A stretch of DNA of 51,303 bases. It comes from a bacterium. Lineage in GTDB: Bacteria; JADJOY01. The notes beneath the pieces were generated by a model that made no database searches, was not told the origin of the DNA, and saw nothing but the letters and a program-made list of their open reading frames with translations. The position numbers and the translations under genes were made by a program. This document shows positions 4,152 to 32,486 of the stretch, one piece after another. Every line of letters begins with the position of its first letter. Positions within the stretch are counted from its first letter, which is position 1. The DNA lies in the NCBI GenBank assembly GCA_046331705.1, contig JAXLQJ010000019.1, positions 62,001 to 113,303 on the forward strand, written 5' to 3'.

Positions 4152-4478
4152 ATGCGGCTGCTCGAAAAGGTGGGTCTTGCGATGGTTGTGCTCGCCCTGG
4201 CGGTTCCGACCCTGGCGCGCGCGGATGCCGCGGCCGGGAAGGCGATCTACGACAAGAAATGCGCGAACTGCCACGGCGCGGATGGAAAAGGCGATGCCAA
4301 GATGGAGGCGAAGCTGAAGGCGAAGACGACGCTCGCCGAGATCGGCGGGAAGAGTGACGCCGACATGATGAAGCTGCTCCAGGAAGGCAAGAAGCCGATG
4401 CCCGGCTACGCCAAGAGCCTGAGCCAGGCCGAGCTGGACGACGTCTGGGCGTACACCAAGAGCCTGATCGGGAAGTGA
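4152..4478 (+). CDS. Periplasmic monoheme class I cytochrome c (c6/c553-like), paralog 1
   Basis: Signal peptide ending ARA-D, CANCH, KPMPGY with likely Met distal ligand; Lys-rich; GAGGAGG RBS. Confidence 0.93.
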   Translation: MRLLEKVGLAMVVLALAVPTLARADAAAGKAIYDKKCANCHGADGKGDAKMEAKLKAKTTLAEIGGKSDADMMKLLQEGKKPMPGYAKSLSQAELDDVWAYTKSLIGK

Positions 4479-4492
4479 GCCGCTGTGCTTGC

Positions 4493-4530
4493 CGGCCCGG
4501 GTCGGTCCCCCCAGGGATCGGCTCGGGCCG
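4493..4530 (+). terminator. Stem-loop after cytochrome c gene
   Basis: 17-bp stem with three G-U pairs (cggcccgggtcggtccc / gggatcggctcgggccg), 4-nt loop, weak U tail. Confidence 0.5.
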
Positions 4531-4872
4531 TTGCATTCGTGGCGCACGGGCCTGGCTGGCTCGCGCGTCGCCATGCGCTTTTGCCCGCTCCACGGACACG
4601 CGCTGGGGCTGGCCCGTCGCAGGCAACGAGCGGCAACCCCCGCGCGCGCCGCTTTCGGAATCGGCCCGGCTTGCGGAGTATCGGGCTCGTCGCTCGCGCG
4701 GCGGCGGTGAGATCCGCATGCCGGCGCGGGGTTACGAGCCCCAAACCCCAGATGCTTCGCGTTACCCGAGTGAAACGGCAACTTCTTCCACGCGCACCGA
4801 TCCTACCCGCAGGTGTATACAGAGACGGCGTCGAAGCACGAGTTTTATGCGAGATCGCGGGCGATCTTCGGA

Positions 4873-4887
4873 AGGCACGCCGATTGC
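4873..4887 (+). promoter_or_regulatory. Sigma54 (-24/-12) promoter of the nanowire-like operon
   Basis: AGGCACGCCGATTGC: GG-N10-GC with GGCACG and TTGC intact. Confidence 0.7.
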
Positions 4888-5073
4888 GGTACGCCCCGAC
4901 GTCGAAGGGAGAGCGGTTCCAACGATCAGCCCGCGACCTCTCGCAGCGCACGCGCTGTCATCCTCGGAGACCAAGCCCCGAGCGGGCCGTCGTCTCGCGA
5001 GCGTCGGACGCGAAGCCCGTGTCGAGACGAGTCGGTCGAGCGAGCAAATAGCAGGACCAGGGAGGTTCCAACC

Positions 5074-8000
5074 ATGACGGACCGGCGGACGACCCTTTCC
5101 GCGATGGCACCAAGGCTGGCGGTGCTGACGCTCGTCGCTTGTATGGGACTGGGTCTTGGCAGCGCATTCGCGGCCACCCAGTACCTCGGCGATGGTGCCG
5201 TCCCGAACGGCACCACCGGCGGCTGGGATCTCCCCAAGCAGGGAACCTGCCCTGCCGACCTCACCCAGACGACGCGGCCCGAATGCCTCGCGCTCCGGCT
5301 CAACGTCGTCCAGGCGAGCTGCACGAGTGGCAACAACCTGTCCTGGACGACGAGCGGCGTGTGTAACGACCTCGTCAACAACACGCAGTCGGCGTGCGAA
5401 GCCCAGGACGACCGGCTCTGGAACGCGGCCACCAACACGTGCGCCGTCGTCATGCAGAACGACGATCGCAACAACGTCGAGTGCGCCCTCCACGGCGCCA
5501 CCTGGGTGACCACGGGGACGTGCATCGGCTCGTGGGTGATGCCGGCCCGCAACGACCCCGCCTACGGCTCCGGTCTGCTCACGTCGAACAGCCCAGGAGA
5601 TCAGTGTCTGCGCTGCCACAACGCCACCACCCAGTACAACGGTCCGCGCGTTCGTGACGTCGAGGACACCCTCTACATGGGCCACCGGAACATGGCCCGC
5701 AAGGTGGTCGCCGGTCAGGCGTGGGGCGGCCCGCCGCTGGAATGCGACAACCCGCTCTTCACCTCCGAAGAGGCCTGCGAGGCGAACGGCGGGCACTGGT
5801 ATCCGGTCAGTCCGTATCCCTCGACCGACACCGGCTGGGCGTTCGATTGGGTCAACGGCACGGTGAACGTGAGCGGCATCGACCGCACGCTCTACTGGAT
5901 CTACGGCGACTGGCTGGGACCCCTTCCGCGCGCGATCTACTCGGCGGATCCGGTTGCCGGCACGCCCCTCAAGCCCGGCGTGTCCTACTCCTGCGCACGT
6001 TGTCACACGACTGGATGGTCGAGCGACGCCACGCTGCAGGCCAACCGTGAGCCGGAGCGCTCGTTCCCAGGCATCACCTGGGACGGCGTGACCGACGCCG
6101 TCACCGGTCAGGTGAACCTGGCGGGCGGCGTGAGCGGCGACACCAACAAGATGGCGTCCTGGGATCTCTTCGGCATCGGCTGCACGCGTTGCCACAACTC
6201 GGCAGTCGACACGACCACCAACGGCGGCGTGGCGCCCTTCACGGCGCCCACCGGCATGTCGAGCCACCACAACGCCCTGACCGCGCCAGACAACTCGAGC
6301 GGCGTGTGCACGGATCCACGGTGGACGCTGGAAGCGCAGTGCACCAGCGCCGGCGGGAGCTGGCTGACGGCCTGCAGCACCACCACGGCCGACGTTTGCA
6401 CGCAGGCCATCACCACCTCGGGCGCTTGCACCTCCCCAGGTGTCTGGGTGGCAGCGGCGGCAGGCTGGTGCAGCAACGCGTTCTACAGCGATCAGACGAA
6501 CTGCACGGCCAACGGCTTCTCGTGGCAGGACGGCTGGTGCACGCGGCCCGACAAGAACTCGAGCGCGCTGTGCACGGGCGGCTCGGGTACGTCCGCGTTG
6601 ACCTGGCGGCGGAACGGCTCCCAGGCTTCGTGTCAGGTGGGCGCCGGCACGTGGTCGTTCGCCAAGTGCAGCGTCGAAGGCGTGTGCAACGTCGACAACA
6701 CCATCACCTCGAAAGCGGCGTGCGATCTGGCCGGTGGTCAGTTCGCGTACGCGACCGACATCGTTCGGTGCGTGGACATCGAAGAGGCGGTTCCCAGCTC
6801 GGGCGCCGAGTGGACCGGCACCAACACCAATCGCGGCCAGATCATCACCTCGCTCTGCATGAACTGCCACCGACAGGAGACGTCGGGCCAGCCCTACGCC
6901 AACACGGGCAATGGCGTCGGTAGCGGCAGCACCTCGAACCCGGGTAGCTACGTCAAGGTCGGCCAGTATCACAGCACCATCACGTTCCCGAGCCATCCGC
7001 ACGGGAACATGTTCCTGAACAGCCCGCACGGAAAGTTCACGGGCACGTTCGATCAGATCGGCACCGCGAAGTTCGGTACCGGTTATGGCAGCTACTTCCA
7101 GTTCGACGGCGAGGCCGCCGGAACGGGCAACGGCTGCACGGGTTGCCACAATCCGCACCGCAGCACCGTCGGGGCGGTGGGCGGCGAGGAAGCCTTCGAG
7201 CCCTGCCAGAAGTGCCATACCGGCCCGTACGCGGTCGACCTGAATGCGATCAATCACCTGAAAGGTGCCGGCACGCCATTCGACACCGCGCTCTTCGGCG
7301 AGGGCGAAGCCGAGCCTTGCATCACCTGCCACATGCCTGGCGGGCAGCACATGTTCCGGATCAATCCGGACAAGAACTACTCGACCTTCCCGGCCTCGGT
7401 GTTCAGCTCCGCGACGGTCACCAACGCCAACACGGCGGCCGAAGGCAGCTTCACCAACGCCGTGTGGGTGGACGTCGACGCGGCATGCGGTCAGTGCCAT
7501 GGCGGCGGCAGCAACAAGGCCAGCACCACGCTCACCGTCGCGAACAGCACCGACGCGACCCTGGGCAAGACTCTGACGGTGGCCTCCACCTCCGGTTTCG
7601 CGGTGGGTCAGCGGGTCGAGCTCGCCGGCGCCGGAAGCTACTCGTACGACGATCAGGGCTCGGTTTCGCAGGGCGATTTCCCGTCCTACGTGACGGCGGT
7701 GAATTCCGCCACGTCGCTGACCGTGGTCGGTGCGGCCCCGTTCAGCGTGTCGGCGGGCGCCGCTCTCAAGCAGAACCCGGTCAAGTACGGTGCCCCGTAC
7801 TACACCAAGGCGCAGCTCGCCGCGGTCGCGAAGGGCATGCACGGCTCGTCCGGCGTGGTCTATCCGGTGACGTTCAGCATCACGCCGTCGGGCAGCGGCC
7901 TCACGGTCGCGGTGGACGCCACGGTGAACTGCGGCAACGATCCGTGCCCCGTGCTGACCTACGACTGGGATTGGGGCGATGGCTCGGCCCACGGCACGGT

Positions 8001-8640
8001 CGATCCCGACAGCCACACCTACGCGACGGCTGGCGCCAAGACGATCAAGCTGACCGTCAACCTGATGGGCAAGGTCGCTGGATCCGCGAGCCGCAGCATC
8101 ACGCTCACGGCGATCGATCAGCCGCCGACGGCCGCGGCAACCTGCACCTGGGACGCAAACCTCTGGAAGATGTCGCTCCTCGATGCCTCGACGGACGACA
8201 ACGCCGTGAGCCAAGTGGTGGTCGACTTTGGTGACGGCAGCAACAAGACGATCGCGCCGGCCGGCAGCTCCATCAACCGCACGTACACCAAGCCCGGCAC
8301 GTTCACGGTCACCGACCGTGCGATCGACAGCAAGCTGCAGTCGTCGGTGTACACCTGCCCGACGCAGGCGACCCCGGCGTACTTCAGCATCAGCGGTACG
8401 GTGAAGAACAAGACGGGTGCGACGAACCTGAGCTCGGCGACCGTGCAGCTCTACAACGGCGCGAACATCGTGAAGAGCGTGCTCACGGCGGCGAACGGCA
8501 CGTTCAGCCTCGGCTCGCTCAAGCCGGCGACGTACACCCTGAAGGTGGTGAAGGTCGGCTACACGTTCGCCAGCCCCGCTGCGACCATCACGGTGGGACC
8601 GACGAGCGCTGGAACGGTCATCAACGCCACGAACAAATGA
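5074..8640 (+). CDS. Large secreted octaheme cytochrome c with Cys-rich repeats, two PKD-like domains and a C-terminal carboxypeptidase-regulatory-like beta-sandwich (1188 aa)
   Basis: GGAGG RBS and signal peptide (..SAFA). Eight motifs: CLRCH, CARCH, CTRCH, CMNCH, CTGCH, CQKCH, CITCH, CGQCH. PKD-type YDWDWGDG..HTYATAG and VDFGDG..RTYTKPG. C-terminal ISGTV..ATVQL..TAANGTFSL..TYTL. Confidence 0.9.
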   Translation: MTDRRTTLSAMAPRLAVLTLVACMGLGLGSAFAATQYLGDGAVPNGTTGGWDLPKQGTCPADLTQTTRPECLALRLNVVQASCTSGNNLSWTTSGVCNDLVNNTQSACEAQDDRLWNAATNTCAVVMQNDDRNNVECALHGATWVTTGTCIGSWVMPARNDPAYGSGLLTSNSPGDQCLRCHNATTQYNGPRVRDVEDTLYMGHRNMARKVVAGQAWGGPPLECDNPLFTSEEACEANGGHWYPVSPYPSTDTGWAFDWVNGTVNVSGIDRTLYWIYGDWLGPLPRAIYSADPVAGTPLKPGVSYSCARCHTTGWSSDATLQANREPERSFPGITWDGVTDAVTGQVNLAGGVSGDTNKMASWDLFGIGCTRCHNSAVDTTTNGGVAPFTAPTGMSSHHNALTAPDNSSGVCTDPRWTLEAQCTSAGGSWLTACSTTTADVCTQAITTSGACTSPGVWVAAAAGWCSNAFYSDQTNCTANGFSWQDGWCTRPDKNSSALCTGGSGTSALTWRRNGSQASCQVGAGTWSFAKCSVEGVCNVDNTITSKAACDLAGGQFAYATDIVRCVDIEEAVPSSGAEWTGTNTNRGQIITSLCMNCHRQETSGQPYANTGNGVGSGSTSNPGSYVKVGQYHSTITFPSHPHGNMFLNSPHGKFTGTFDQIGTAKFGTGYGSYFQFDGEAAGTGNGCTGCHNPHRSTVGAVGGEEAFEPCQKCHTGPYAVDLNAINHLKGAGTPFDTALFGEGEAEPCITCHMPGGQHMFRINPDKNYSTFPASVFSSATVTNANTAAEGSFTNAVWVDVDAACGQCHGGGSNKASTTLTVANSTDATLGKTLTVASTSGFAVGQRVELAGAGSYSYDDQGSVSQGDFPSYVTAVNSATSLTVVGAAPFSVSAGAALKQNPVKYGAPYYTKAQLAAVAKGMHGSSGVVYPVTFSITPSGSGLTVAVDATVNCGNDPCPVLTYDWDWGDGSAHGTVDPDSHTYATAGAKTIKLTVNLMGKVAGSASRSITLTAIDQPPTAAATCTWDANLWKMSLLDASTDDNAVSQVVVDFGDGSNKTIAPAGSSINRTYTKPGTFTVTDRAIDSKLQSSVYTCPTQATPAYFSISGTVKNKTGATNLSSATVQLYNGANIVKSVLTAANGTFSLGSLKPATYTLKVVKVGYTFASPAATITVGPTSAGTVINATNK

Positions 8641-8758: not shown

Positions 8759-9553
8759 ATGAGACGCCACATTCACACCGCGCTGGCTGTCGCCCTGGGG
8801 CTCTTGCTCGCGCAGTCGGCGATGGCCTTCTCTGGATCCTACGTCCCGGGCGCCGGGATCAACGGGACGGTTCACGACCTCGGTACGCCGGGCGCGAACG
8901 GCATGAACTACAGCGCATCGCCGGCGGATTCGCTGAACCGGATCTGCATCTTCTGCCACGCGCCACACAACACGTATCGTCTGAGCACGGCGACGGGCGG
9001 CGCGGGACCGCAGGCTCCGTCGGAGTTCGACTACCTGCCGCTGTGGAACCACACGCTGCAGGACCCGACCGGCTACACGATGTACGAGAACGGGCCGGGC
9101 GCGCCGCAGAGCGGCTCCAAGGCGTCACAGGCGATCTTGAACGGCATGACGCCGGGCAGCACCTCGCTGCTCTGCCTGAGCTGCCACGACGGCACGATCG
9201 CCGTGAACTCGTACGGCAACGCCGATCAGATCAGCCAGTCGACGGGGAACAACGCGATCGTCGACGCCTACGCGATCGGTAAGGACCAGTACCTCGGGAA
9301 CCACCATCCGATCGGCTTCAACTACGACGACGTGCAGGCCGGCGACACCGAGATCCGCAGCGCCGACACCGCGATGCTCACTCCGTCCTCGTTCGTTCGC
9401 GATCACCTGGCGGGCGACGCGCACATGGAATGCGCGACCTGCCACTCGGTGCACAACAAGGGCAACGACGGCGAGCGGCTGCTGTGGAGAAGCGATCAGA
9501 ACAGCGAGCTCTGCTTGACGTGCCACGACAAGGGCAACTACACGGCGCCTTGA
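8759..9553 (+). CDS. omcE: OmcE-like tetraheme cytochrome c (putative cytochrome nanowire subunit)
   Basis: Signal peptide, then HDL, ICIFCHAPHN, PLWN, SLLCLSCHDG, NHHPIGF, MECATCHSVHN and SELCLTCHDK, colinear with Geobacter OmcE as I recall it (HDLS..ICVFCHTPHN..PLWN..CMSCHDG..DHPVNF..ECGSCHKVHD..SKLCLGCH). Confidence 0.85.
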   Translation: MRRHIHTALAVALGLLLAQSAMAFSGSYVPGAGINGTVHDLGTPGANGMNYSASPADSLNRICIFCHAPHNTYRLSTATGGAGPQAPSEFDYLPLWNHTLQDPTGYTMYENGPGAPQSGSKASQAILNGMTPGSTSLLCLSCHDGTIAVNSYGNADQISQSTGNNAIVDAYAIGKDQYLGNHHPIGFNYDDVQAGDTEIRSADTAMLTPSSFVRDHLAGDAHMECATCHSVHNKGNDGERLLWRSDQNSELCLTCHDKGNYTAP

Positions 9554-9587
9554 CGCCCCGCGCCCTCGCGGCGAGCCCTGGTGCACG

Positions 9588-9626
9588 GAGAGGGGAATGG
9601 GATCACCCATTCCCCTCTCGTCTTTT
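9588..9626 (+). terminator. Rho-independent terminator or attenuator after the omcE-like gene
   Basis: gagaggggaatggg-atca-cccattcccctctc, 14-bp perfect stem followed by gtctttt. Confidence 0.75.
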
Positions 9627-9721
9627 GTCTCCGGTGGTTCTCGCGCGCTCGCGTCCTCGAGCTCGGAGGCTGCGCCGCGCGAGCTTTGACGCCGCCTCCG
9701 CCCGGTGGTAAGAGGCGCCAC

Positions 9722-10885
9722 ATGAACGTGCCGACGATGCGCCAATTTCATTCGTTGCGACGCGGGGTTGCGGCGGCGCTGCCGGTGCTCCTCGTGGCAC
9801 TGGTGACGTCGTGCGCGAAGCAGGTCGAGCCCCCTGCCGTGCCCGTCTTCTTCCCGCCGGCGCCAGAGCTGCCGCGCATCCAGTTCCTGGTGTCGCTGAA
9901 CGGGCGCAAGGACGTCGAGGAGCAATCGGCTTTCGATCGCTTCGTGCTCGGCGAGAAGCCCGATCTCAAGGTGGACAAGCCCTACGGGGTCGCCATCCAC
10001 GACGGGAAGATCTACGTCTGTGACACCAACTCCACCGTGTTCGTCTTCGATCTCGACGGCCGGAGCTTCGGGCCGCTCGAGGGGGCGATCGGGCCTGGGC
10101 GGCTTCGGCAGCCGACCAACATCAGCATCGATTCGGACGGCACCAAGTACGTCGCGGATCCGGTGCGCGGCCAGGTCGTGGTGTTCGACGCGGACGACCA
10201 GTACGTCGACGCGTTCGGCACACCCGGCTCCTGGCGTCCGGTGGACGTCGTCCAGCTCGAAGGCCGGCTCTACGTCGCGGACGGCACCAAGCGTCTGGTG
10301 GTCGTGCTCGATGCGAAGACCGGGCAGGTCCTCAAGACCATCGGCGACAAGGGGGATCCGAGCGAGCGTCTCGATCGACCGACGAACCTCGCGTTCGACG
10401 CCGATGGCTATCTCTACGTCACGGATTTCGGGCGCTTTCAGGTGCTGAAGTACGATCGCGACGGGCACTACAAGGCGGCCTTCGGCGGCATCGGAGCGGA
10501 CTTCGGTCACTTCGCGCGGCCGAAGGGGATCGCCCTGGATCGCGCGGGGCGCCTCTATGCCGTCGACGCCTCGTTCAACAACGTCCAGATCTTCAACCCC
10601 GAGGGTCGGCTGCTGCTCTTCTTCGGCGAGAGCGGCGAGGGGCCCGGCGGCTTGCTGCTGCCCGCGAAGGTCGCGATCGACTACGACAACCTGAGCTATT
10701 TCGAGGGTTACCTGGCGCCGGATTTCCGTGCCGAATACCTGATCCTGGCCACCAGTCAGTTTGGCGAACGTCGGGTGAACGTCTTCGCGTACGGGCACGC
10801 GACGGGGAAGAGCTACCCCAGCGACGCCGATGCGTTGAAGCAGATCGAAGAACGGAAGAAGAAGGAGTCGGCTCCACCGAAGTGA
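9722..10885 (+). CDS. NHL-repeat (6-bladed beta-propeller) lipoprotein
   Basis: Lipobox LVTSC; repeated P.[GN][IVL]A.D..G.LYV.D blades. Start could also be 9737. Confidence 0.9.
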   Translation: MNVPTMRQFHSLRRGVAAALPVLLVALVTSCAKQVEPPAVPVFFPPAPELPRIQFLVSLNGRKDVEEQSAFDRFVLGEKPDLKVDKPYGVAIHDGKIYVCDTNSTVFVFDLDGRSFGPLEGAIGPGRLRQPTNISIDSDGTKYVADPVRGQVVVFDADDQYVDAFGTPGSWRPVDVVQLEGRLYVADGTKRLVVVLDAKTGQVLKTIGDKGDPSERLDRPTNLAFDADGYLYVTDFGRFQVLKYDRDGHYKAAFGGIGADFGHFARPKGIALDRAGRLYAVDASFNNVQIFNPEGRLLLFFGESGEGPGGLLLPAKVAIDYDNLSYFEGYLAPDFRAEYLILATSQFGERRVNVFAYGHATGKSYPSDADALKQIEERKKKESAPPK

Positions 10886-10922: not shown

Positions 10923-11459
10923 ATGAAGGCCAGGGCGAGCGCAGCATGGATCCTGTTCGCGATCCTACTGCCGGCGGGGTGTAGCCCGGCCGAGCGTTAC
11001 GACGTCCTCTCGACGTTCTTCGACGGCGTGCCGCTGCCTCCCCCCGAGGAGGGACCGAGCGCTCCGCTGCAAGACTCGGCGCTGATCACCAATCAGCGAG
11101 AGCGGGCCATCCGCGGGACCCACGGCCCGTACGGCGCTCGGATGTGCAACGCCTGTCACGAGTCGATCGCCAACAACAAGCTGGTCGCGCCGCGCGAGAA
11201 GCTCTGCGTCCGCTGCCACGATCTCGAGCTCGATGCGCGTTACGTCCACGGGCCGCTCGCGTCGGGCGGCTGCACCGTGTGCCACGACCCGCACAGCTCG
11301 CGCTACCGGTTCTTGCTGGTGGCGGAGCCCGAGACCTTCTGTCTGCACTGCCACGATCGCGAAGCGGTGGCGCGAGTCGAGGCGCACCACGAAACCGATG
11401 CGCATTGCACCACCTGTCACGATGCGCACAAGTCGAACAAGAAGTTCTTGCTGAAATGA
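10923..11459 (+). CDS. Pentaheme cytochrome c lipoprotein (paired-CXXCH type)
   Basis: Lipobox LPAGC; CNACH, CVRCH, CTVCHDPH, CLHCH, CTTCH. Confidence 0.9.
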   Translation: MKARASAAWILFAILLPAGCSPAERYDVLSTFFDGVPLPPPEEGPSAPLQDSALITNQRERAIRGTHGPYGARMCNACHESIANNKLVAPREKLCVRCHDLELDARYVHGPLASGGCTVCHDPHSSRYRFLLVAEPETFCLHCHDREAVARVEAHHETDAHCTTCHDAHKSNKKFLLK

Positions 11460-23567: not shown

Positions 23568-23652
23568 CACTTCACCTCCCCAGGTGTGCGCTCGCGCCGT
23601 GGCTTACGGACGAGGAGCCATCGGGTGCGGCCGGTGGCTCCTCGCGAGAGCA

Positions 23653-24149: not shown

Positions 24150-26075
24150 CTATTCCTGCTCGTCTTCGTCGGGTTCGGCCCCTGGCCCCGTTTCGGCGGG
24201 CATTCGTTCCAGGACTCGGCCGGCGGGCGAGCGGCCGGTCAGCCAGGCGGTGTCCATCGGATAGACCACGGGGTCGAAGATGACGAAGTAAAAATGCCAC
24301 ACCAAGATCGAGAGTGTGGCGAGCACGGCCTCGTAATAGTGGAGGGCCGTCGCGACGTCGAGAGCCCATTTGGGCAGGTGTTGCATCGCCTGGGTCGAGA
24401 ACCACAGCAGCAGCCCGGAAGCCGCCATGACCAGGCTTCCCCACAAGAACGCCAGGTACTCGGCCTTCTCGGGGTAACCGAGCGACGGGCTGCGCGGCGG
24501 CACCGGGCTGCGACCGGCGAGCCAACGCATCTTCTCGACCAGCTCGTGCAGGTCGGACCGTCCCGGCACCATGCCGAGGATGCACGCGCGCGCCTTGCGG
24601 TCGAACGCGACGTGCATGAGGTGGAAGCCGAGCGCCGCCATCATCACCGAGCCCGCGGCCCGATGGATCAGGCCGCGCAGCTCGAGCGAGGCCTCCCAGG
24701 TCAGCAACGGTCTCGCCCACCAGGCCTCGGGGAACTTGAGCGCGAAGCCCGTGTACACGAGCACCAGGAAGCTCGTGGCGGTGAAGCCGTGCGCGAGTCG
24801 GAAGCCGAGGGAAAGCCGCTCCTCGCGCGGAGCGACGGCGCGTCTCGGGCGCCAGGAGTCGTTCCTCGCCTTGCGGTAGAGATCGAGCGCGTTGTGAAGG
24901 AACATCAAACCGATGACCAGCGGGATCAGCACCAGGTAGATCCGGCGAACCCACGTCACCACGATGTGCTCGCCCTGATTCGGCAGCACGTGGATCGCGG
25001 TGATGGGAAACGTGTCCCCGGCGCCCGGGTGGCATTTGCCACACGTCTTCGGCAGGTTCGACGGATGAATCAGCGAGCGCGGGTCCGAGGAGGGCAACAC
25101 GTCGTGAACGCCATGGCACGAGGCGCAGTTCGCGACCGTCGCCGAGCCCGTTCGCATCGCCAGGCCGTGATAGCTGTCCTCGAACGCTTTGACCTTGTCC
25201 GCGGAGAAGCCGAATTTCTGCGCGAGCCGGATGTCTCCGTGGCAACGCCCGCAGGTCATCTTCGGCACGTTGCTGGCGGCGACCGGTGAGCCACGCTCGT
25301 GTGGTGCGGCGATCATGTGCTCGCCGTGGCAGTCGATGCAGGTCGGCGCCTCGCGGATCCCGTGCGCCACGGCCTGACCGTGGATGCTCCCCTCGTACGC
25401 CTTGGCGATCTCGGTGTGGCACTTGCCGCAGGTGCTCGCGACGTTCTGGGAGTTGACCTGCGAGCGCGGGTCTTGCGGCGGCAGGATCCCGTGGCTGCCG
25501 TGGCAGCTGCTGCAGACGGCGCCGTGCCGGCCGTCGGCCTCCGCGCGCGCGTGCACGCTCGCCCGGTAGGCCTCGATCGGTAGGGTGCGGCCGAAGCCGA
25601 GCTTCTTCGCCATCTCGCCATCGCCGTGACAGCGGCCACAGGTCTCGGCGACGTGGCTCGGATGCAGCGGCGACTTCGGATCGTCGCTGGGCACGATCGC
25701 GTGCGCGGCTCCGTGACACTCGAGGCACGCCGCCGGCTCGATATCGGCTGCCGCTCGCCCGTTGCCGTGCACGCTGCCCGCGAGCTCGTCGAAGGCGTCG
25801 TCGTGACACGGGCGGCAGCTCGAGGCGGTGTCGCCATCCTCGTGTGGAACCCGGGCCGACTTCGGGTGACAGTCGACACACTCGAAGGACTCGTGCGCGG
25901 TGCCCGCGACCGCGGCTTGCTCGTCGGGATGACAGGTGTCGCAGGTGGTCTCGTCATCCTCGGCTTCGGCCGCGGCAGTCGCTGCCGGCGCCCGCACGAG
26001 CATGGCGAGCGCGACGAGTGCGGCGATCGCCAGCAGCCGCACCCGCCACGGGTCGCACCCGGCCTTCTGGTTCAT
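24150..26075 (-). CDS. cbcL: CbcL-like inner-membrane bc-type cytochrome (11 c-hemes plus a di-heme cytochrome b domain)
   Basis: Signal peptide and 11 CxxCH, then an FdnI/HydC-type cytochrome b domain (RLAH..YTG, IHRAAG..H, KAEY..WG, LHYYEAVLA..WHFY). ATGA overlap with the upstream gene. Confidence 0.85.
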   Translation of the reverse strand: MNQKAGCDPWRVRLLAIAALVALAMLVRAPAATAAAEAEDDETTCDTCHPDEQAAVAGTAHESFECVDCHPKSARVPHEDGDTASSCRPCHDDAFDELAGSVHGNGRAAADIEPAACLECHGAAHAIVPSDDPKSPLHPSHVAETCGRCHGDGEMAKKLGFGRTLPIEAYRASVHARAEADGRHGAVCSSCHGSHGILPPQDPRSQVNSQNVASTCGKCHTEIAKAYEGSIHGQAVAHGIREAPTCIDCHGEHMIAAPHERGSPVAASNVPKMTCGRCHGDIRLAQKFGFSADKVKAFEDSYHGLAMRTGSATVANCASCHGVHDVLPSSDPRSLIHPSNLPKTCGKCHPGAGDTFPITAIHVLPNQGEHIVVTWVRRIYLVLIPLVIGLMFLHNALDLYRKARNDSWRPRRAVAPREERLSLGFRLAHGFTATSFLVLVYTGFALKFPEAWWARPLLTWEASLELRGLIHRAAGSVMMAALGFHLMHVAFDRKARACILGMVPGRSDLHELVEKMRWLAGRSPVPPRSPSLGYPEKAEYLAFLWGSLVMAASGLLLWFSTQAMQHLPKWALDVATALHYYEAVLATLSILVWHFYFVIFDPVVYPMDTAWLTGRSPAGRVLERMPAETGPGAEPDEDEQE

Positions 26076-27601
26076 AGGCTGCCCGTCGCGCCATCGTGGC
26101 AGTCGGAGCAGATCTGGTCTTGCCACATGTCGCCGATGTCACCGGGATGGACGAACTCGAGCCCCTCGAAATTCGCGGCCGTCTTCTCCGTCGACGAGCC
26201 TTGTCCGACGATCAGATGGCACGTGTTGCAATCGCGGGTGAGCGGGGTGCCGTCCTTGGTCTTGTGGTCGCCGTCGTGGCAGCGGAAGCATCCCGGGAAG
26301 TTCATGTGGCCGATGTTGTCCGGGTACGGCTTCCAGTTCACCTTCATCTCCGGGAACACGTTCTGCTCGAAGAGTCGCTGCACCTCGGTGATGGCCGCGT
26401 CGATCTCGGCTTGATGGGTTCGCGCATAGTCCGCTTGCTCGGTGCGGTAGTACGTGGAGAGCGTGTCCGCGATCGTGTGCCGCGCCTCTTCCGTGGTCTC
26501 GTAATCCTTGGCGAGCAGCGTGATCGCTTGCTGCTTGATGTAGGGGATGGATCCGTCGATGCGCTTGGTGAAGATCGACATGTCGACCGAGTCGACGGGC
26601 GGGTTGTATCGGTGCGAGGGGCGGTTGTGGCAGTCGATGCAGTCCATGCGTCGCGGCGTCGCCTTTTCCAGCTCCTCGGGCTTGAGCGGCGCGGAGCCGG
26701 ATTCGTAAACCCGCACGGTGCCGTCCGGTCCCGTCACGCGCACCCATGGGATCACCTGGCGCTGCGGGTCGGAGGCGACGTACTCGACCTTGTTCTCGAT
26801 GTTCATGTGCCAGTGGATGCCGCCCGCCGGCCCGAAGCTCGGATCTCCGCCACCCACCTTCATGAGCAGCGAGATGGTCCACGGCGAGTTCGTCTCGTCC
26901 GCCAGGTAGTGATGGTTCTCGCGCAGCGCGGCGCCGAAGAACTTGCGTGGCCAGTGGCATTGCTCGCAGGTCTCTTGGGCGGGGCGCAGGCTTTCCACCG
27001 GTACGGGGATCGGCCGCGAGTACTTGTGGGTCAGCACCGAGTACACCTGGTAGAGGCCGGAGACCTTCGACTTCACGAACCATTCGGCCCCTGGCCCGAT
27101 GTGGCACTGGACGCAGGTCACCCGCGCGTGCGGCGACTCGCGATAGGCGGTCTTCTCGGGGCTCATCACCTGATGGCAGGTGTCGCCGCAGAACATCACG
27201 GACTCCGTGAACTCGTACGCTCGATAGGAGCCGATGGCGGAGAGCAAGAGCAGCAGGAACGTGCCGCTGGTGACACCGATGAACGTCGCGCGATGGCGCG
27301 GAACGTTGAAATCGATGCGCGGGAACGGAGGGATCTCGCCCGGTTTCGCGCGCCGCCGTCGCCGTCGCTCGAGCAGCACGCCGATGACGATCAGCGCGAT
27401 CCCGAGCAGCAGGAATCCGGGCGCGATGACGTAGGTGAGGATGCCCTGATACGGATTGCGGAATCCGCGGAAGAAATCGGCGCCGAGGAGGTAGACGGCG
27501 CCGAACAGCGTGCAGGCCGTGAGGATGGATCCCGCCAGGCTGATCCAGTTCTGCATCAGCGACGGATGACGAGGCTGGGCGGTGCTGGGCTGTTCGGCCA
27601 T
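26072..27601 (-). CDS. imcH: ImcH-like NapC/NirT family heptaheme inner-membrane cytochrome
   Basis: Three N-terminal TM helices including NPYQGIL. FCGDTCH, CVQCHIGPGA, LRPAQETCEQCHWP, GIHWH, MDCIDCHNRPSH, GCFRCHDG, CNTCH, CSDCH give 7 hemes. Confidence 0.88.
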   Translation of the reverse strand: MAEQPSTAQPRHPSLMQNWISLAGSILTACTLFGAVYLLGADFFRGFRNPYQGILTYVIAPGFLLLGIALIVIGVLLERRRRRRAKPGEIPPFPRIDFNVPRHRATFIGVTSGTFLLLLLSAIGSYRAYEFTESVMFCGDTCHQVMSPEKTAYRESPHARVTCVQCHIGPGAEWFVKSKVSGLYQVYSVLTHKYSRPIPVPVESLRPAQETCEQCHWPRKFFGAALRENHHYLADETNSPWTISLLMKVGGGDPSFGPAGGIHWHMNIENKVEYVASDPQRQVIPWVRVTGPDGTVRVYESGSAPLKPEELEKATPRRMDCIDCHNRPSHRYNPPVDSVDMSIFTKRIDGSIPYIKQQAITLLAKDYETTEEARHTIADTLSTYYRTEQADYARTHQAEIDAAITEVQRLFEQNVFPEMKVNWKPYPDNIGHMNFPGCFRCHDGDHKTKDGTPLTRDCNTCHLIVGQGSSTEKTAANFEGLEFVHPGDIGDMWQDQICSDCHDGATGSL

Positions 27602-28025: not shown

Positions 28026-28682
28026 TCACGGCGTCGTCTTCTTGAGTGTCTTCATGTACTCGACGGTGTCGCGGATCTGTTGCGGATTGAGCCGAGTCGC
28101 CCACTCCGGCATGTAGGGCGAGCCGTGCATCGCCTTCGCCGCGCCCAGGGAGATGAAGTTGACGAGCTCGTCCTCGCGGCCCTCGATCTTGAACTCCGGC
28201 GACGTGAAGTCGCGCGGCTTCGGAGGATCCAGATACGTCGCGACGGGGCCTTTGCCGTCGCCGTTGACGCCGTGGCAGCCCTGGCAAGACGCCGCGTAGA
28301 TGTCGCGGCCCGCGGGGACGCTCACGTGCTTGCCCGGAACGGAGAGCGTCCGGATGAAGCCGATCGTGCTCTGCAGGACCTCGGGCTTGAGCACGGTCGC
28401 GACGGTCATGGGACCGTGCGAGGCGCTCTCGAGGCCCTTGGCGATCGCTTCGTCGCTGCGCCCGGCCAGCCACGCCGAGTTGGTGAAGTCGAGAAGGGGC
28501 GCCTTCAGGTTCGCCGCGAGCGGGCCGTCGCCACGTCCGTAGCGCCCGTGACAGGTCGCGCAGAGCTCCTCGTAGACCTGCTGGCCTTGTGCCTTGAGGC
28601 CGGCCGCGTCCTCTGCAACGGCGACGGCGGCAGAACCTCCGAGGGCGACGGCGACGACTGCTGCGATGGCGAACCGGTTCAT
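28026..28682 (-). CDS. Periplasmic diheme class I cytochrome c
   Basis: Signal peptide; CATCHG..GRGDGP and CQGCHG..GDGKGP..PRDFT; PYMPEW Met ligand. Confidence 0.92.
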   Translation of the reverse strand: MNRFAIAAVVAVALGGSAAVAVAEDAAGLKAQGQQVYEELCATCHGRYGRGDGPLAANLKAPLLDFTNSAWLAGRSDEAIAKGLESASHGPMTVATVLKPEVLQSTIGFIRTLSVPGKHVSVPAGRDIYAASCQGCHGVNGDGKGPVATYLDPPKPRDFTSPEFKIEGREDELVNFISLGAAKAMHGSPYMPEWATRLNPQQIRDTVEYMKTLKKTTP

Positions 28683-29044: not shown

Positions 29045-29242
29045 TCAGAGCGCGCTTCGGCGCACCAACTCGCGTGTGACGTGGACCAGATAGATCACCA
29101 CGCCGCAGCCCACCAGGGGCACGCCCAGGAACGCGAGGGCCAGAAACGTGCCGGGTGTGGTGCGTACCAACACGCCCGGCACGAACGCGAGGCCGAGCAG
29201 CTCGAGCGCGATGGCCAGGCGCAGCACTTGAGGTCGCGTCAT
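29045..29242 (-). CDS. Small two-TM membrane protein (65 aa)
   Basis: MTRPQVLRLAIALELLGLAFVPG..FLALAFLGVPLVGCGVVIYL; ATGA overlap with the NapC-like gene. Confidence 0.7.
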   Translation of the reverse strand: MTRPQVLRLAIALELLGLAFVPGVLVRTTPGTFLALAFLGVPLVGCGVVIYLVHVTRELVRRSAL

Positions 29243-29946
29243 GGGTGCTCCGAACCTGCGCCGGCGGCGAAGCCGAGCACCGCTGTGGGGCTCGGCATCG
29301 CCGGCGCTGCCTTCTTCGGTTCCCAGAACTCGTACGAATCGAGGTCGTCGACCGGGTGGATGAGGTCGTGGCAATCGCTCTGCATGCACGACACCTCGCC
29401 AGTCAGGATCTTGGCCAGCGGCGCGGCGGCGGTCCTGTGTTGCTTCGACGCTTCGAAACGCCGCGAGCCGCGGTGGCACCACAAGCAGTTGTCGTTGGGA
29501 AAAGGTTCGTAGAGCTGGATCTTGTCGGGAACCCCGCCCAGATAGTGACGGTAGATGTGCCGCAGCCCGCCCAGCTTGGCTTTCACGTCGCCGAACATCG
29601 AGTAGTCGGCGTGGCACGTGTAGCAGGCGTGGTCGCGCGTGAGCAGGTTGTTCTGGAAATGCACCGCGGGCACGACCTCTTCGTCGTCGATGGTCAACGT
29701 CTTCGCGAACGGAGCCATCTCGTGGCACGAGTCGCGGCAGAACGCGGTGCGCGTCGACTCGTGCAGACCATGGCGCACGCTCACGATCAACGAGCCGATG
29801 GGCAGTACCGTCAACCCCACCAGCAGCAGGATTCGGCCCGCTCGCTCCTCCGCTAGCCGGTCGACGAACATCAGGAGGTAGATCGAGAGCCCGATCGTGA
29901 CGAGCCACCCACCCAAGAGCACCAGGTGCTCGGCGATCATGCGCAT
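29239..29946 (-). CDS. NapC/NirT/CymA-family membrane-anchored tetraheme cytochrome c
   Basis: Two TM helices; FCRDSCHEM, CYTCH..AKLGGLRH, CLWCH, CMQSDCH. Confidence 0.85.
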   Translation of the reverse strand: MRMIAEHLVLLGGWLVTIGLSIYLLMFVDRLAEERAGRILLLVGLTVLPIGSLIVSVRHGLHESTRTAFCRDSCHEMAPFAKTLTIDDEEVVPAVHFQNNLLTRDHACYTCHADYSMFGDVKAKLGGLRHIYRHYLGGVPDKIQLYEPFPNDNCLWCHRGSRRFEASKQHRTAAAPLAKILTGEVSCMQSDCHDLIHPVDDLDSYEFWEPKKAAPAMPSPTAVLGFAAGAGSEHP

Positions 29947-30012: not shown

Positions 30013-30429
30013 TCACTTCTTCAGTCCCCCCAACCACTCGGCGACCACCTTGAGCTCGTCCTTCGTGCCCCGAAAGCGCTTCTTGTGCTTTCTGCCGTCG
30101 AGCGTTTCCTGCTTCACCAGGAACTTCGCGATCCAGAGCTTGTCCTTCTCGGCGCCGACGTTGGAGAGGTCGGGCGGATCACGCTTCTCGCCCGTGTCGG
30201 GCTCGTCCCCTTCTTCGTCCGTCGGGTCTTCGCTCTCGACGATCGCGACACCCTGGCTCTCGATCTTGTGGCAGCGGTTGCATTTCTGCGCGACGAAGAT
30301 CTTCTTGCCGTCCGCGTCCTGCGCGCGCGCGGCGGGAGCAGCGACGATCGTGGCGATGACCAGAGCCGTCATCGCCACGAGGATCGTCCGGATCCTGAGG
30401 GGCGGGATGTCGCGTTTGTCGTGACCCAT
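30013..30429 (-). CDS. Monoheme cytochrome c
   Basis: Signal peptide ARA-Q; GKKIF..KCNRCH; PDLSNVG; AGGAG RBS. Confidence 0.88.
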   Translation of the reverse strand: MGHDKRDIPPLRIRTILVAMTALVIATIVAAPAARAQDADGKKIFVAQKCNRCHKIESQGVAIVESEDPTDEEGDEPDTGEKRDPPDLSNVGAEKDKLWIAKFLVKQETLDGRKHKKRFRGTKDELKVVAEWLGGLKK

Positions 30430-30526
30430 CACGTCGCTTCTCCTCCTGGCTCGCCGCGCGAGCCGTTCGAGTTTCGGATGCCCTGCCCTGCGCTGCGTCG
30501 AGGTCGTCGTGGACGCGCGTGTGCGG

Positions 30527-30901
30527 TCACGGCAGCGCACCGCCGTCGATCCAGGACGCCACCGTGAGCGCCTCGGCGCCGTTCGCCGGGAGCGGCGTGC
30601 CGCCGCCGTGGGACACGGCTCCCGTGGCCTTGCGCTGGAGCAGGCTGGCTGCCGAGTCTCCGGCGACGACCAGGGCGCTCACGGTCGTGTAGTCCCGGGT
30701 TGCGTCGCCGCTGAGCGGCATCTTCTTGTTCGACGGCTTGTGGCAGCCGGCGCAATGGCTCATGAGGATCGGATGGATGTCGGCGGCGAAGGTGGGCACG
30801 TCGCTGCCGCCGCTTCCGTCGCCCGCGCCGCGGTGGAAGTCGCCGCACCCGGCGAGCAGCACGAACGCCAGCGCCGCAGCGATGCAACCCTCAGAAGTCA
30901 T
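30527..30901 (-). CDS. Monoheme cytochrome c lipoprotein (planctomycete cytochrome C-like domain)
   Basis: Lipobox LLAGC; PTFAADIHPILMSHCAGCH; C-terminal WIDGGA. Confidence 0.85.
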   Translation of the reverse strand: MTSEGCIAAALAFVLLAGCGDFHRGAGDGSGGSDVPTFAADIHPILMSHCAGCHKPSNKKMPLSGDATRDYTTVSALVVAGDSAASLLQRKATGAVSHGGGTPLPANGAEALTVASWIDGGALP

Positions 30902-32033
30902 AGCGGAGCTCCAATCGCAGGAAGTCGTTGGCCTGCTCGTCTGCTTCCTCGAGCCGCCAGTAGTGGGAGAGGCCGACGGTCGCGCCGCGATGGAGGGCGA
31001 CGATCGAGACGCTGTGGGCGCTGGTGTCGTTGGCGTCCTTCCGCTCGTCGTCGAAGTAAAAGCCGTCGCGGTTGTCGTAGGAGCGGAAGCCGCCGCGGTA
31101 CTGCAGGTAGAGCCAGTCGGTGGCGTAGTAGCGGACCTGCACGTAGTCGCCGAAGTGGTAGTAGTTGTGAGCGGAGGATTTCTCGATCACGTCGGCGCGC
31201 ATCGCGCCCACCGCGACCGCGAGGTTTTCGAGGACGGGCCAATCGGGCCGCCAGAGCGTGACGTCGACGGCTTGCATGACGAGCCGCTGCCCGAAGCCCA
31301 TGTTGTTCACGTAGATCGAGTACCAACCGCTCACGGGCCCCCAGCCGACCCGCACGCGATTGCCGACGCCGAAGCGCACCGCGTCGGAGGACGAGAGGTC
31401 GGAGGTCAGGTCTACGACCGCATCCGTAGCGTCCACGGCGTACCCCTGTACGCCGTAGAGATCGTTCGCGATCGTGAGATCGCCGAGCTGGCTCACCAGC
31501 CCGAGGGTGCCGCCGAGCTCGGCCCACACCGTCGGGAGGATCTCTTGGTCGAATCCGGTCAGACCGCCATAGGCGTGGTGAAAGAGCGGGTCCGGTCCGA
31601 ACGGCACCAGGATCTTCCCCGCCTTGAGTGTCGCGACGGCGGGCGCGAAGCCCAGCTCCTCGCGCACCCCGATCTCGTAGAACGTGAGGTCGACGACCTC
31701 CGCGGTGAGGAAGAACGGATCGTCCTTCGCGTGCCGGTCGACGAACAGGAAGTGGTGGTAGTTCTTCAGCACGTCGTGGCCGTCGAGGGGGTTGTCGGTG
31801 TAGTCGCGCCTCTCGTAGGCGAAGTCGAACGCGCCGTGCAGCGAGATGTCTTGCAGGATGGGGAGCAGGGCGAGGCCGCCGGGAAGATTGCTGGTGCCGT
31901 CAGTGCCCGCCGCCGGCTTCGAGTCGCCCGTTCCTGCGGCCGCGGGGCCTGCGCCCGTTGCGTCCGCAGCGCGTGCGGCCACGGCCAACGCGATCGCCCC
32001 GAGCCATGCACCGACGACGATTCGAAATCTCAC
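30891..32033 (-). CDS. Outer-membrane porin-type beta-barrel
   Basis: Signal peptide; GKILVPFG motif typical of porin families; Tyr-rich amphipathic strands; C-terminal LRLELRYDF beta-signal. Confidence 0.82.
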   Translation of the reverse strand: MRFRIVVGAWLGAIALAVAARAADATGAGPAAAGTGDSKPAAGTDGTSNLPGGLALLPILQDISLHGAFDFAYERRDYTDNPLDGHDVLKNYHHFLFVDRHAKDDPFFLTAEVVDLTFYEIGVREELGFAPAVATLKAGKILVPFGPDPLFHHAYGGLTGFDQEILPTVWAELGGTLGLVSQLGDLTIANDLYGVQGYAVDATDAVVDLTSDLSSSDAVRFGVGNRVRVGWGPVSGWYSIYVNNMGFGQRLVMQAVDVTLWRPDWPVLENLAVAVGAMRADVIEKSSAHNYYHFGDYVQVRYYATDWLYLQYRGGFRSYDNRDGFYFDDERKDANDTSAHSVSIVALHRGATVGLSHYWRLEEADEQANDFLRLELRYDF

Positions 32034-32066
32034 GTGCAGCCTCCGTGGGATGGGCCAGCGTGAAGA

Positions 32067-32486
32067 TCAGTCCTTGAACAAGTCCTCGATGTTCTCGATC
32101 GGCTCTTTGCTCGCGCCGAGGTGACACGACTCGCATTCGATGCGGTCGTCGTCGACGCGCCATGCGAGACGTCCGTTGTGACAGGCCCCGCAGAAGGCAC
32201 CGCGTCTCATGTCGGCATGTGTGAAGCCGCGTTTCGCCTGCGGAAAGATCGTGGGATGACACGCGTAGCAACGGAACTGATCGTGGCGCCAATGCGAGAA
32301 CACCCCGGGTTCGGGCGGATCGCTGTCGTCGTGTGCTTTCACGATCGGAACGGCGACGCGATCCGGTACCGCGGCGCCGAGAACCGGTAGCGCGAACGTG
32401 ATCGCGGCGACCGCGAGCAAGCCCAGGCGTCTCCGTCGCCAACCATTGCTGTTTGCCGTGTCGCGCGGTTCGGATTGCCGGTGCAT
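32067..32486 (-). CDS. c7-type triheme cytochrome
   Basis: FSHWRH..CYACHPTIF..MRRGAFCGACHNG..CESCH. Confidence 0.9.
   Translation of the reverse strand: MHRQSEPRDTANSNGWRRRRLGLLAVAAITFALPVLGAAVPDRVAVPIVKAHDDSDPPEPGVFSHWRHDQFRCYACHPTIFPQAKRGFTHADMRRGAFCGACHNGRLAWRVDDDRIECESCHLGASKEPIENIEDLFKD

Follow-up and report, generated by a model that had tools for sequence, protein, structure and literature searches.

A predicted trans-envelope electron-transfer locus built around an OmcE-type cytochrome module in a candidate bacterial phylum

We analysed a 51,303-nucleotide stretch of a bacterial genome, hereafter the window (contig JAXLQJ010000019.1; G000 contig C19, positions 62001-113303), in which positions 4152-32486 hold a 28-kb locus of 22 genes (g1 to g22; Table 1) rich in c-type cytochromes. 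Judging from the encoded proteins, we consider it likely that this locus specifies a trans-envelope system for extracellular electron transfer (EET) built around an OmcE-type cytochrome nanowire module, with electrons flowing outward. The host probably exchanges electrons with solids outside the cell.

The source genome comprises 8.17 Mb in 118 contigs, with 70% GC and a completeness of 95.7%. Since high GC otherwise yields many spurious open reading frames (ORFs), frames were picked by the GC bias of third codon positions (GC3). Twelve of the resulting genes (g1-g12) lie on the + strand and ten (g13-g22) on the - strand. Haem c motifs are present in 15 of the 22, as 72 CXXCH and 7 CX3CH or CX4CH motifs (79 in total), and all coding-frame CXXCH motifs of the window are confined to 4092-32504. 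Genome-wide there are 51 ORFs with at least three CXXCH, carrying 347 motifs; nine of these ORFs, with 64 motifs, fall in the locus, which makes up 0.35% of the genome. This concentration is far above chance. A first-pass annotation of the same DNA had counted 16 c-type cytochromes and 80 motifs. The dense cytochrome locus it described is real, with the numbers corrected to 15 genes and 79 motifs; the intergenic gaps of the locus contain no coding frame and no 16th cytochrome gene. The two beta-barrels of that annotation correspond to g6 and the porin-like g21, and its two NHL lipoproteins to g4 and g7, which both match PF01436 above the cut-off and carry lipobox-like signals.

The core of the locus is g3-g9 (8759-17829), a tight operon with intergenic gaps of -20 to +38 bp. 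As described in PMC13712944, a minimal omcE cluster encodes, besides the OmcE subunit, a pair of multihaem cytochromes, a pair of beta-propeller lipoproteins and a large beta-barrel. The g3-g9 operon has an OmcE homologue, a large barrel, two propeller lipoproteins and three further multihaem cytochromes (g5, g8 and g9), and by its predicted products it corresponds in gene content to the omcE nanowire cluster as published. The lipobox motifs of g4, g5 and g7 were read by eye from the sequences; in g4 the call is a VTSC after a hydrophobic stretch.

The putative wire subunit is g3. In a search of the Protein Data Bank (PDB) it matches 7tfs_A, the OmcE filament chain of G. sulfurreducens, over residues 13-258 (E 9.5e-17) and 9yuq_N (E 1.3e-14); from its match to the 2026 mBio OmcE paper (PMC13712944), 9yuq is most likely the OmcE bundle of D. 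soudanensis. Identity to Geobacter OmcE in the 7tfs_A alignment is only about 30%, and in this alignment the four CXXCH motifs and His39, His70, His183 and His232 of g3 coincide with OmcE histidines. The four motifs and His39, 70, 98, 182, 183 and 232 are invariant across 38 homologues. By alignment, g3 is a true OmcE homologue. Its family includes at least 2363 proteins at E<=1e-5. Among these matches the best 120 are all at least 66% identical to g3, and their few organism labels are Nitrospirota, Dissulfurispiraceae and 'Deltaproteobacteria'. The neighbouring barrel is only 42-47% identical in the same relatives in which g3 is so conserved.

Likeness to OmcE suggests that g3 may form filaments. 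A different arrangement, for which we see a real but minor chance, is a porin-cytochrome conduit lacking a nanowire. Here g3 and g8 would be monomeric or small-oligomer surface cytochromes seated on the barrel, like MtrC on MtrAB, and no micrometre-long filament would be made. Filaments have been shown, according to PMC13712944, only for the OmcE proteins of Geobacter and Desulfuromonas, to which g3 is only about 30% identical, and the unusually strong conservation of the g3 subfamily may be due to many fixed partners and not to self-assembly. Speaking against this arrangement, g3 retains the four haem motifs together with four non-motif histidines in common with OmcE, a protein in which a histidine of the next subunit completes one haem (PMC12307469). 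A model of g3 with part of g8 also places two OmcE folds in a confident shared interface, as described next.

A second OmcE-like domain is found in g8, a secreted 12-haem cytochrome. The N-domain of g8 matches 7tfs_A over residues 21-218 with an E value of 9.1e-27, a stronger OmcE match than that of g3 itself, and g8 and g3 are 30% identical to each other (E 7e-21). All 12 motifs of g8 (10 CXXCH, one CX4CH and one CX3CH) are invariant in nine sequences. When 8000 candidates were scored, at least 6762 proteins belonged to the g8 family at E<=1e-10, and the best 120 of them are 57-100% identical to g8 over at least 94% of its length; g8-type proteins are not peculiar to the JADJOY01 lineage. The possibility that g2 is a third OmcE-like protein was rejected, as g2 is not OmcE-like in sequence comparison.

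A complex of g3 (residues 24-264) and the g8 N-domain (residues 36-222) with four haems was modelled in three runs alongside three controls. The three runs scored 0.86, 0.85 and 0.85, versus 0.00 for the best control; in the calibration of this score, 58 of 80 solved complexes attained the mark, as did 2 of 110 mismatched pairs. At least 91% of the contacts are shared among the runs, and the pLDDT (predicted local distance difference test) of the partner is at least 90. The interface joins residues 109-123, 180-183 and 246-260 of g3 with residues 37-40, 60-78 and 179-185 of g8. The model supports binding of g3 to g8 but does not prove it.

On this modelling, g8 is a candidate base or tip for OmcE-type filaments. 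According to the authors of the 2026 mBio study, the OmcE operons examined there show no OmcE-like tip candidate with more exposed haems, and their anchor candidate Dsoud_2415 lies outside the omcE cluster (PMC13712944). A broader proposal, which we offer tentatively and regard as doubtful in its full form, is that the g8 family links OmcE-type filaments to the cell. The N-domain would dock on the end of the g3 polymer via the subunit interface, the 8-haem rod would enter the barrel to reach g9, and the six-species phylum of the host (see below) would be a nanowire-forming lineage with a transplantable quinol-to-wire set. If true, this would explain how nanowires start, anchor and wire to the periplasm, a question posed by the 2026 OmcE paper, and would cover at least 6762 g8-like and at least 2363 g3-like proteins.

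The barrel of the module is g6, a gene that at its start shares 4 bp with g5. The AlphaFold2 (AF2) model of g6, built on an 88-row alignment, is all-beta with pLDDT 92.3 and a predicted template-modelling (pTM) score of 0.80. No Pfam or NCBIfam family matches g6, nor does the MtrB family. A Foldseek search with the model returned only generic large barrels at template-modelling (TM) scores of at most 0.42, the highest likeness being to MtrB (6r2q_B, TMq 0.41), and no solved homologue could be named from it. The g6 family has 445 representatives at E<=1e-3, always of about 660-700 residues. In the genome, g6 is single copy, as is the whole core module. Only 3 of 10 clusters looked up for the g6 family have a named member, and the sole organism label is Nitrospirota metagenome-assembled genomes (MAGs), with none from Desulfuromonadia.

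The candidate for the cytochrome that threads this barrel is g9. It has seven doubled-CXXCH stretches and matches 6r2q_A with an E value of 4e-15; 6r2q is an entry of the Mtr complex. We take its chain A to be MtrA. Against the DmsE model TIGR03508, g9 scores 152.6 bits, below the cut-off of 192.2, and with g6 lacking a family match, the pair was not assigned to MtrAB/DmsE.

How far the parts of the locus belong together was seen from the contigs around g6 homologues in eight other genomes (G001, G002, G003, G005, G041, G043, G044 and G045), in which tblastn searches were run with all 22 proteins. Six of the eight have the complete g3-g9 set; the other two are cut by contig ends, G001 starting inside g3 and G002 ending after g8. 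The lipoprotein genes g4, g5 and g7 are kept in all eight. Gene order is collinear in G003, G005, G041 and G044, and the OmcE gene is on the opposite strand in G043 and G045. Homologues of g2 adjoin the OmcE gene in G002, G003 and G005, with a g1-like gene upstream of g2 in each, and partial g2 homologues do so in G041, G043, G044 and G045.

Beyond the core, G001 keeps g10-g18 in the same order, and G003 has g16-g18, with g10-g13 not found beside its module. In G005 an ImcH-type gene directly follows g9 at the contig end. An ImcH-type gene therefore adjoins the module in the four genomes of the phylum whose contigs reach that far (G000, G001, G003 and G005). By their titles, from which alone their phyla were taken, G041, G043, G044 and G045 are Binatia, Myxococcales or uncultured bacteria; within 40-55 kb they gave no homologue of g10-g22, apart from weak class I cytochrome matches in G041. 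No fetched contig of any relative has g19-g22, which among the genomes compared occur only in the source genome. In the genomes compared, the inner-membrane modules adjoin g3-g9 only inside this phylum, at a conserved chromosomal site, and outside it only g3-g9 recur, often with a g2-like gene.

The locus had initially been called an island. The left flank beside g1 has GST, SDR and DinB genes in G002, SDR and DinB in G003, and GST in G005, and the right flank directly follows g18 in G001 and G003. Flank ORFs of the window matched the Pfam families GST, methyltransferases, SDR, DinB, RibD-like, ADH, B12-radical SAM, polyprenyl synthase, UbiA, M48 peptidases and phospholipase C; those at 3-362 and 45293-47674 matched no Pfam family. 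These scans found no transposase, integrase or Ccm/Ccs protein on the flank ORFs, and an Rfam scan of the window found no tRNA and no other RNA family, in agreement with the first-pass annotation, which saw neither maturation nor mobility genes in the window. The genome has four matches to the haem-maturation family PF01578, all outside the contig of the locus (contigs C1, C5 and C8). We rejected the mobile-island reading because the flanks are conserved in relatives of the same genus and family, no tRNA is present and no mobility family occurs on the scanned flank ORFs. The locus is an old chromosomal feature with variable cassettes, a mosaic rather than a recently acquired island.

Four kinds of candidate quinol-oxidising modules flank the core. 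The first is g17, with transmembrane segments at residues 20-38, 58-76 and 105-123, a CX3CH at 138 beside the third of these, CXXCH at 163, 212, 321, 438, 458 and 498, and a PF03264 NapC/NirT match at 105-195. ImcH is described as a protein of about 495-519 residues with three N-terminal transmembrane segments, an atypical CX3CH beside a transmembrane segment and six CX2CH; its homologues are reported only from Fe(III) reducers, and the members outside Geobacter are 31-49% identical to Geobacter ImcH (PMC6295460). In its predicted architecture g17 has every one of these listed features. The second is g16. CbcL/MtoC/MtrH proteins, of 416-1034 residues, join 3-23 N-terminal haem motifs to a HydC/FdnI-like dihaem b membrane domain and occur in iron reducers and oxidisers (PMC6295460), and g16 has this architecture as judged from its motifs and domains. 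It also gives a partial match to the formate dehydrogenase gamma model TIGR01583 and has paralogues on contigs C8 and C1. In PDB sequence searches, g16 and g17 found only weak NapC/NrfH matches (E 0.004-0.008).

The third module is the contiguous g10-g12. Cbc4 (CbcSTU) is described as a membrane-anchored tetrahaem cytochrome, a protein with four [4Fe-4S] clusters and an integral membrane subunit, all encoded together (bioRxiv 10.1101/2025.04.14.648717), and the predicted products of g10-g12 match it in architecture only. The true start of g11 probably lies downstream of 18899. For g12, the DsrP model NF045798 scores 417.9 bits, above its cut-off of 350, and for g11 the DsrO model scores 178 bits, below its cut-off of 200. 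A Dsr complex (DsrMKJOP) was rejected for these genes, given the score of g11, the four rather than three haems of g10 and the lack of DsrM and DsrK in the window. The fourth module is the NapC-type g19.

Candidate periplasmic carriers are also encoded. The c7-type trihaem cytochrome g22 scores 57.8 bits with TIGR04257 (cut-off 40) and 47.2 with PF14522 (cut-off 24.8) and matches PDB 3ov0 (E 9.7e-35) and 1rwj (E 8.4e-9). Of the class I cytochromes, g1, g14 and g15 are paralogues with 52-58% identity. On the outside, the likely start of g2 is near 5071, which gives it a signal peptide and an LVAC lipobox-like motif.

Together these genes suggest a path for electrons. Quinol would be oxidised at the inner membrane by the ImcH-, CbcL-, Cbc4- and NapC-type modules (g17, g16, g10-g12 and g19), and the electrons would pass to soluble periplasmic carriers, namely g22 and perhaps the class I mono- and dihaem cytochromes. 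From there they would reach the MtrA-like g9, in or under the g6 barrel with its lipoproteins g4, g5 and g7. Outside the cell, g8 would join the conduit to the g3 polymer via its OmcE-like domain, and g2, with its eight haems and its PKD and Ig-like domains, would serve as a surface contact. Such a chain could be used for respiration of Fe(III) or Mn(IV) oxides, humic matter, electrodes or partner cells in anoxic phases of sludge. A quinol-to-surface pathway covering inner membrane to exterior had been proposed on first reading, and there is a candidate gene for each of its steps (g17, g16, g10-g12 and g3).

Table 1. Predicted genes of the locus, with haem c motif counts, and pieces of RNA-library contigs that match g3 with zero mismatches (positions in the window)
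Feature	Position	Strand	CXXCH (+ CX3CH/CX4CH)	Description	Basis
g1	4152..4478	+	1	class I monohaem cytochrome c, 108 aa, signal peptide	PF13442, PF00034 above cut-off
g2	4813..8640	+	8	large 8-haem secreted protein, PKD and carboxypeptidase-regulatory-like (Ig-like) domains	8 CXXCH; PF18911 PKD_4, PF13620, PF14522
g3	8759..9553	+	4	OmcE-type tetrahaem cytochrome, candidate filament subunit, 264 aa	PDB 7tfs_A match, 4 CXXCH
g4	9581..10885	+		NHL-repeat beta-propeller, probable lipoprotein; likely start near 9722	PF01436 NHL, PF17170 six-bladed propeller
g5	10923..11459	+	5	pentahaem lipoprotein cytochrome, 178 aa	5 CXXCH, doubled-CXXCH domain (3 stretches), lipobox LPAGC
g6	11456..13513	+		large outer-membrane beta-barrel, 685 aa, ~28-30 strands, small insert 402-473	AF2
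g7	13526..14614	+		second NHL-repeat beta-propeller lipoprotein, 362 aa	PF01436 77.5 bits, lipobox AISGC
g8	14595..16469	+	10 + 2	12-haem secreted cytochrome, 624 aa; OmcE-like N-domain (~36-220) and 8-haem C-terminal part	7tfs_A match
g9	16480..17829	+	13 + 2	13+2-haem cytochrome, MtrA/DmsE-like repeats, candidate barrel-threading conduit	TIGR03508, 6r2q_A
g10	18187..18972	+	4	membrane-anchored tetrahaem cytochrome, CbcS-like position	transmembrane segment 34-52, 4 CXXCH, PF09699
g11	18899..19948	+		Tat-exported iron-sulfur protein, CbcT/DsrO/NrfC-like	PF13247, RRDFL, 16 Cys in four groups
g12	19957..21213	+		NrfD-family integral membrane quinone-interacting subunit, CbcU/DsrP-like	PF03916 120 bits, ~8 hydrophobic segments
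g13	21264..23210	-		polytopic membrane protein, 648 aa, ~16 hydrophobic segments	weak DUF2339, below cut-off
g14	23235..23570	-	1	class I monohaem cytochrome c	PF13442 52.7 bits
g15	23726..24061	-	1	class I monohaem cytochrome c	PF13442 50.3 bits
g16	24150..26126	-	11	CbcL/MtoC/MtrH-type quinol:cytochrome module, 658 aa	11 CXXCH at 62-362; PF01292 Ni_hydr_CYTB 438-620
g17	26072..27601	-	6 + 1	ImcH-type inner-membrane cytochrome, 509 aa	3 transmembrane segments, CX3CH, six CXXCH, PF03264
g18	28026..28682	-	2	dihaem class I cytochrome c (c4-like)	PF00034, two stretches
g19	29239..29946	-	2 + 2	NapC/NirT-family membrane cytochrome	PF03264; 2 CXXCH, CX3CH, CX4CH
g20	30013..30540	-	1	monohaem cytochrome c	PF00034 29.5 bits
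g21	30891..32033	-		porin-like beta-barrel, 380 aa, C-terminus ...RYDF	Atlas: Porin_O_P and Porin_4 clusters
g22	32067..32486	-	3	c7-type trihaem periplasmic cytochrome, PpcA/UetDEG-like	3 CXXCH, TIGR04257, PF14522
run X15 on g3	9064-9192				zero-mismatch piece
run X16 on g3	8783-9289				zero-mismatch piece
run X17 on g3	8689-8979				zero-mismatch piece
run X19 on g3	8722-9054 and 9157-9567				zero-mismatch pieces

Among the closest known systems is the omcE cluster of Desulfuromonadia. It too has, in one operon, genes for a tetrahaem OmcE protein whose haem motifs and distal histidines are conserved, for two propeller lipoproteins and for a large barrel and multihaem cytochromes. The present operon differs in having three further multihaem cytochromes instead of two, including the pentahaem lipoprotein g5, and in that one of them, g8, bears its own OmcE-like domain. 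The flank Pfam scans gave no resB/ccsB and no glycosylation gene block alongside. Despite its distance from Geobacter OmcE, g3 is at least 66% identical to more than 100 environmental homologues, and the host phylum is not among the five phyla named in PMC13712944. In the osc operon of G. sulfurreducens, the gene of a filament cytochrome is likewise accompanied by those of its proposed secretion (OscE, F, G) and folding (OscH) proteins, as given in PMC13194489, but the subunit belongs to the hexahaem OmcS family.

With the MtrCAB/Pcc systems the locus shares the principle of a multihaem cytochrome inside a large barrel that links periplasm and surface, g9 having MtrA/DmsE-like repeats and MtrB being the top TM match of g6. 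It departs from them in the scores of g9 and g6 given above and in an extracellular partner that is OmcE-like rather than MtrC-like. The Geobacter proteins ImcH, CbcL, Cbc4 and PpcA resemble g17, g16, g10-g12 and g22 in architecture. However, g16 has 11 haem motifs against 9 in CbcL, g10 is about 100 residues longer than CbcS, and g22 is closer to GSU1996-type c7 domains. Here no more than 15 kb separates the quinol modules from one another and from the outer-membrane module, whereas in Geobacter the Cbc4 and omcE loci are separate, as the locus tags GSU0068-70 and GSU0618 given in the sources indicate. Geobacter imcH and cbcL are at separate loci as well. The first-pass annotation had listed all four as dispersed in G. 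sulfurreducens; the tags bear this out for cbcSTU and omcE.

The uet cluster is a further system for comparison. The description in bioRxiv 10.1101/2022.05.06.490989 assigns to uetABCDEFGHIJ a tetrahaem cytochrome (UetA), a peptidyl-prolyl isomerase (PPIase; UetB), a barrel with 28 predicted strands (UetC), c7 trihaems (UetDEG), a cupredoxin (UetF), NHL proteins (UetH/I) and an undecahaem cytochrome (UetJ). It is found in 'Ca. Tenderia electrophaga' and other Tenderiales and in some Gallionella, and is proposed to take up electrons in cathode-oxidising Tenderiales. The likeness, which is by domain type only, covers the extracellular tetrahaem cytochrome, the large barrel, two NHL proteins, an 11-12-haem secreted cytochrome and a c7-type trihaem, that is, counterparts of A, C, H, I, J and one of D/E/G. 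The present locus has no PPIase or cupredoxin, its single c7 trihaem lies 14 kb from the module, and CcsAB is not adjacent. The Tenderiales are proposed to be electron-uptake autotrophs, whereas here ImcH- and CbcL-type modules adjoin the core and no RuBisCO was found.

The direction of flow is not fixed by the module, because the uet cluster has a similar parts list. In the inward alternative, which we hold to be unlikely, extracellular donors such as Fe(II) minerals, reduced humics, cathodes or partner cells would feed terminal oxidases by way of the periplasmic c7 and class I cytochromes, the route suggested for uet. The six COX1-family matches in the genome fit such a route. Nevertheless, outward transfer is favoured because the ImcH-type gene travels with the module in this phylum, its homologues being reported only from Fe(III) reducers, and because no RuBisCO large subunit was found in the 95.7% complete genome. 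The PPIase and cupredoxin specific to uet also gave no Pfam match in the window. A facultative heterotroph fits the six COX1-family matches and the missing RuBisCO large subunit better than an electroautotroph does.

Several points weigh against an outward, nanowire-based system. The locus contains five class I cytochromes, which is unusual for a Geobacter-type outward chain and speaks for inward flow. Class I cytochromes are typical of higher-potential chains. By analogy, the parts of the locus could serve the electron uptake proposed for cathode-oxidising Tenderiales, and CbcL/MtoC/MtrH homologues, in the survey of PMC6295460, come from iron oxidisers as well as iron reducers. Only g3-g9 are conserved beyond the phylum, and adjacency is what connects the flanking modules to them. 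The likeness of g6 to the Geobacter and Tenderia barrels is one of domain type. For the subunit itself the AF2 model, built from a 38-row alignment, had a pLDDT of 43.3 and was unusable, as expected for a mostly coil protein modelled free of haems, and it allowed no structural comparison. The high scores of the g3-g8 complex may reflect memory of, or likeness to, the solved OmcE filament, and the alignments and the riding ligand fall outside the calibration. The evidence on this organism comes from sequence and models, and the RNA contigs described below may stem in part from carried-over DNA and give no ranking of genes.

We consider it very improbable that these cytochromes serve to respire soluble compounds (nitrite, sulfur or metalloid oxyanions) in the periplasm, with the barrels as ordinary porins and no EET: NrfCD/DsrOP-like and NapC/NrfH-like modules do also serve soluble-substrate reductases and g21 resembles an OprO/P-type porin, but family scans of the window gave no catalytic reductase subunit (molybdopterin, NrfA or sirohaem), g3, g8 and g9 specifically resemble extracellular or trans-membrane cytochromes, and the barrel family, of about 660-700 residues, is placed with these cytochromes in the relatives examined.

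The host itself belongs to a GTDB phylum of six species genomes in one family and two genera and is not a Geobacter, in keeping with the early suggestion. The barrel is present in five of the six genomes, the sixth being 74% complete; in a close relative, L009, it is 67% identical. A GTDB placeholder phylum named like the accession prefix of L009 is equated in PMC11382960 with 'Candidatus Fixabiota', represented there by a single activated-sludge genome (8.19 Mb, 70.88% GC). In the literature searched we found no description of the locus; the sole mention of the phylum found in this context is a MAG listed among those with at least three predicted secreted multihaem proteins (PMC11495043).

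Fourteen DNA runs from eight coded studies contain 0.65 or more of the words sampled from 8700-17900. Their labels read activated sludge, wastewater, sludge, digester or metagenome, and the source sample may be among them. RNA-library contigs from wastewater were compared with 8000-27900 for four of the six listed runs, and contigs fall on g3 in all four, each with zero-mismatch pieces (Table 1). Run X15 touches all 30 bins of this region. The parts left uncovered in X16, X17 and X19 carry no meaning for expression, and the runs were found with this stretch in the first place. The RNA contigs on g3 are a weak hint of expression.

Some neighbouring features deserve mention. Between the Cbc4-like operon and the class I cytochromes sits g13, which has a counterpart of 78% identity in G001. 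The four genes g19-g22 (NapC-type, monohaem, porin-like and c7 trihaem) look like a cassette and might form a second, smaller conduit of the fused cytochrome-porin type. No Pfam or NCBIfam family matches g21. Within the Atlas, the structure nearest to it is the porin portion of a cluster of 714-aa proteins named 'cytochrome c domain-containing protein' and labelled mostly Myxococcota.

To the right of the locus, positions 32505-45075 (- strand) hold genes for a UbiE-like methyltransferase, a RibD-like deaminase/reductase, a zinc ADH, a B12-binding radical SAM protein, a polyprenyl synthase and a UbiA prenyltransferase, and for a protein of about 1600-1800 residues that joins FAD_binding_3, GTP cyclohydrolase II and WD40 propellers. 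G001 and G003 have this set at the corresponding position. Its product may be a prenylated cofactor resembling a flavin or a quinone, and a tie to the neighbouring quinol modules is speculation. Further on, the ORF at 45293-47674 (+ strand) encodes 793 residues with good coding bias and no Pfam family, and has an 81% identical counterpart in G001. Elsewhere in the genome, two neighbouring ORFs on contig C48 (13609-17866) have 32 and 24 CXXCH, and contig C22 (11585-20475) has a further cytochrome cluster with ORFs of 5, 11, 14 and 6 CXXCH. About 25 ORFs of 680-1030 residues with 4-5 CXXCH each, on contigs C6, C7, C23, C26, C28, C42, C53 and C63, resemble one expanded paralogue family.

Published OmcE-type clusters come from Thermodesulfobacteriota, Pseudomonadota, Aquificota, Campylobacterota and Nitrospirota (as given in PMC13712944), and a 2026 peat preprint describes OmcE-like multihaem cytochromes in conserved syntenic porin-cytochrome clusters of Acidobacteriota and Verrucomicrobiota. 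The kind of system is therefore already known, and the advance is one of distribution and detail, not of principle. What is new is the lineage itself, the co-location of four candidate quinol modules with an OmcE-type module, and a 12-haem cytochrome in the cluster whose OmcE-like domain, as modelled, may join conduit to wire.

If the proposed outward, OmcE-centred system is correct, OmcE-type wiring would reach a candidate phylum that has no cultured member and no described physiology and that recurs in activated-sludge and wastewater metagenomes. Within 28 kb the locus unites four candidate quinol modules, periplasmic carriers, an outer-membrane module and a putative wire subunit, and is thus a convenient template for heterologous reconstruction. 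With g8, it also supplies a specific candidate that can be tested as the base or tip of the filament.

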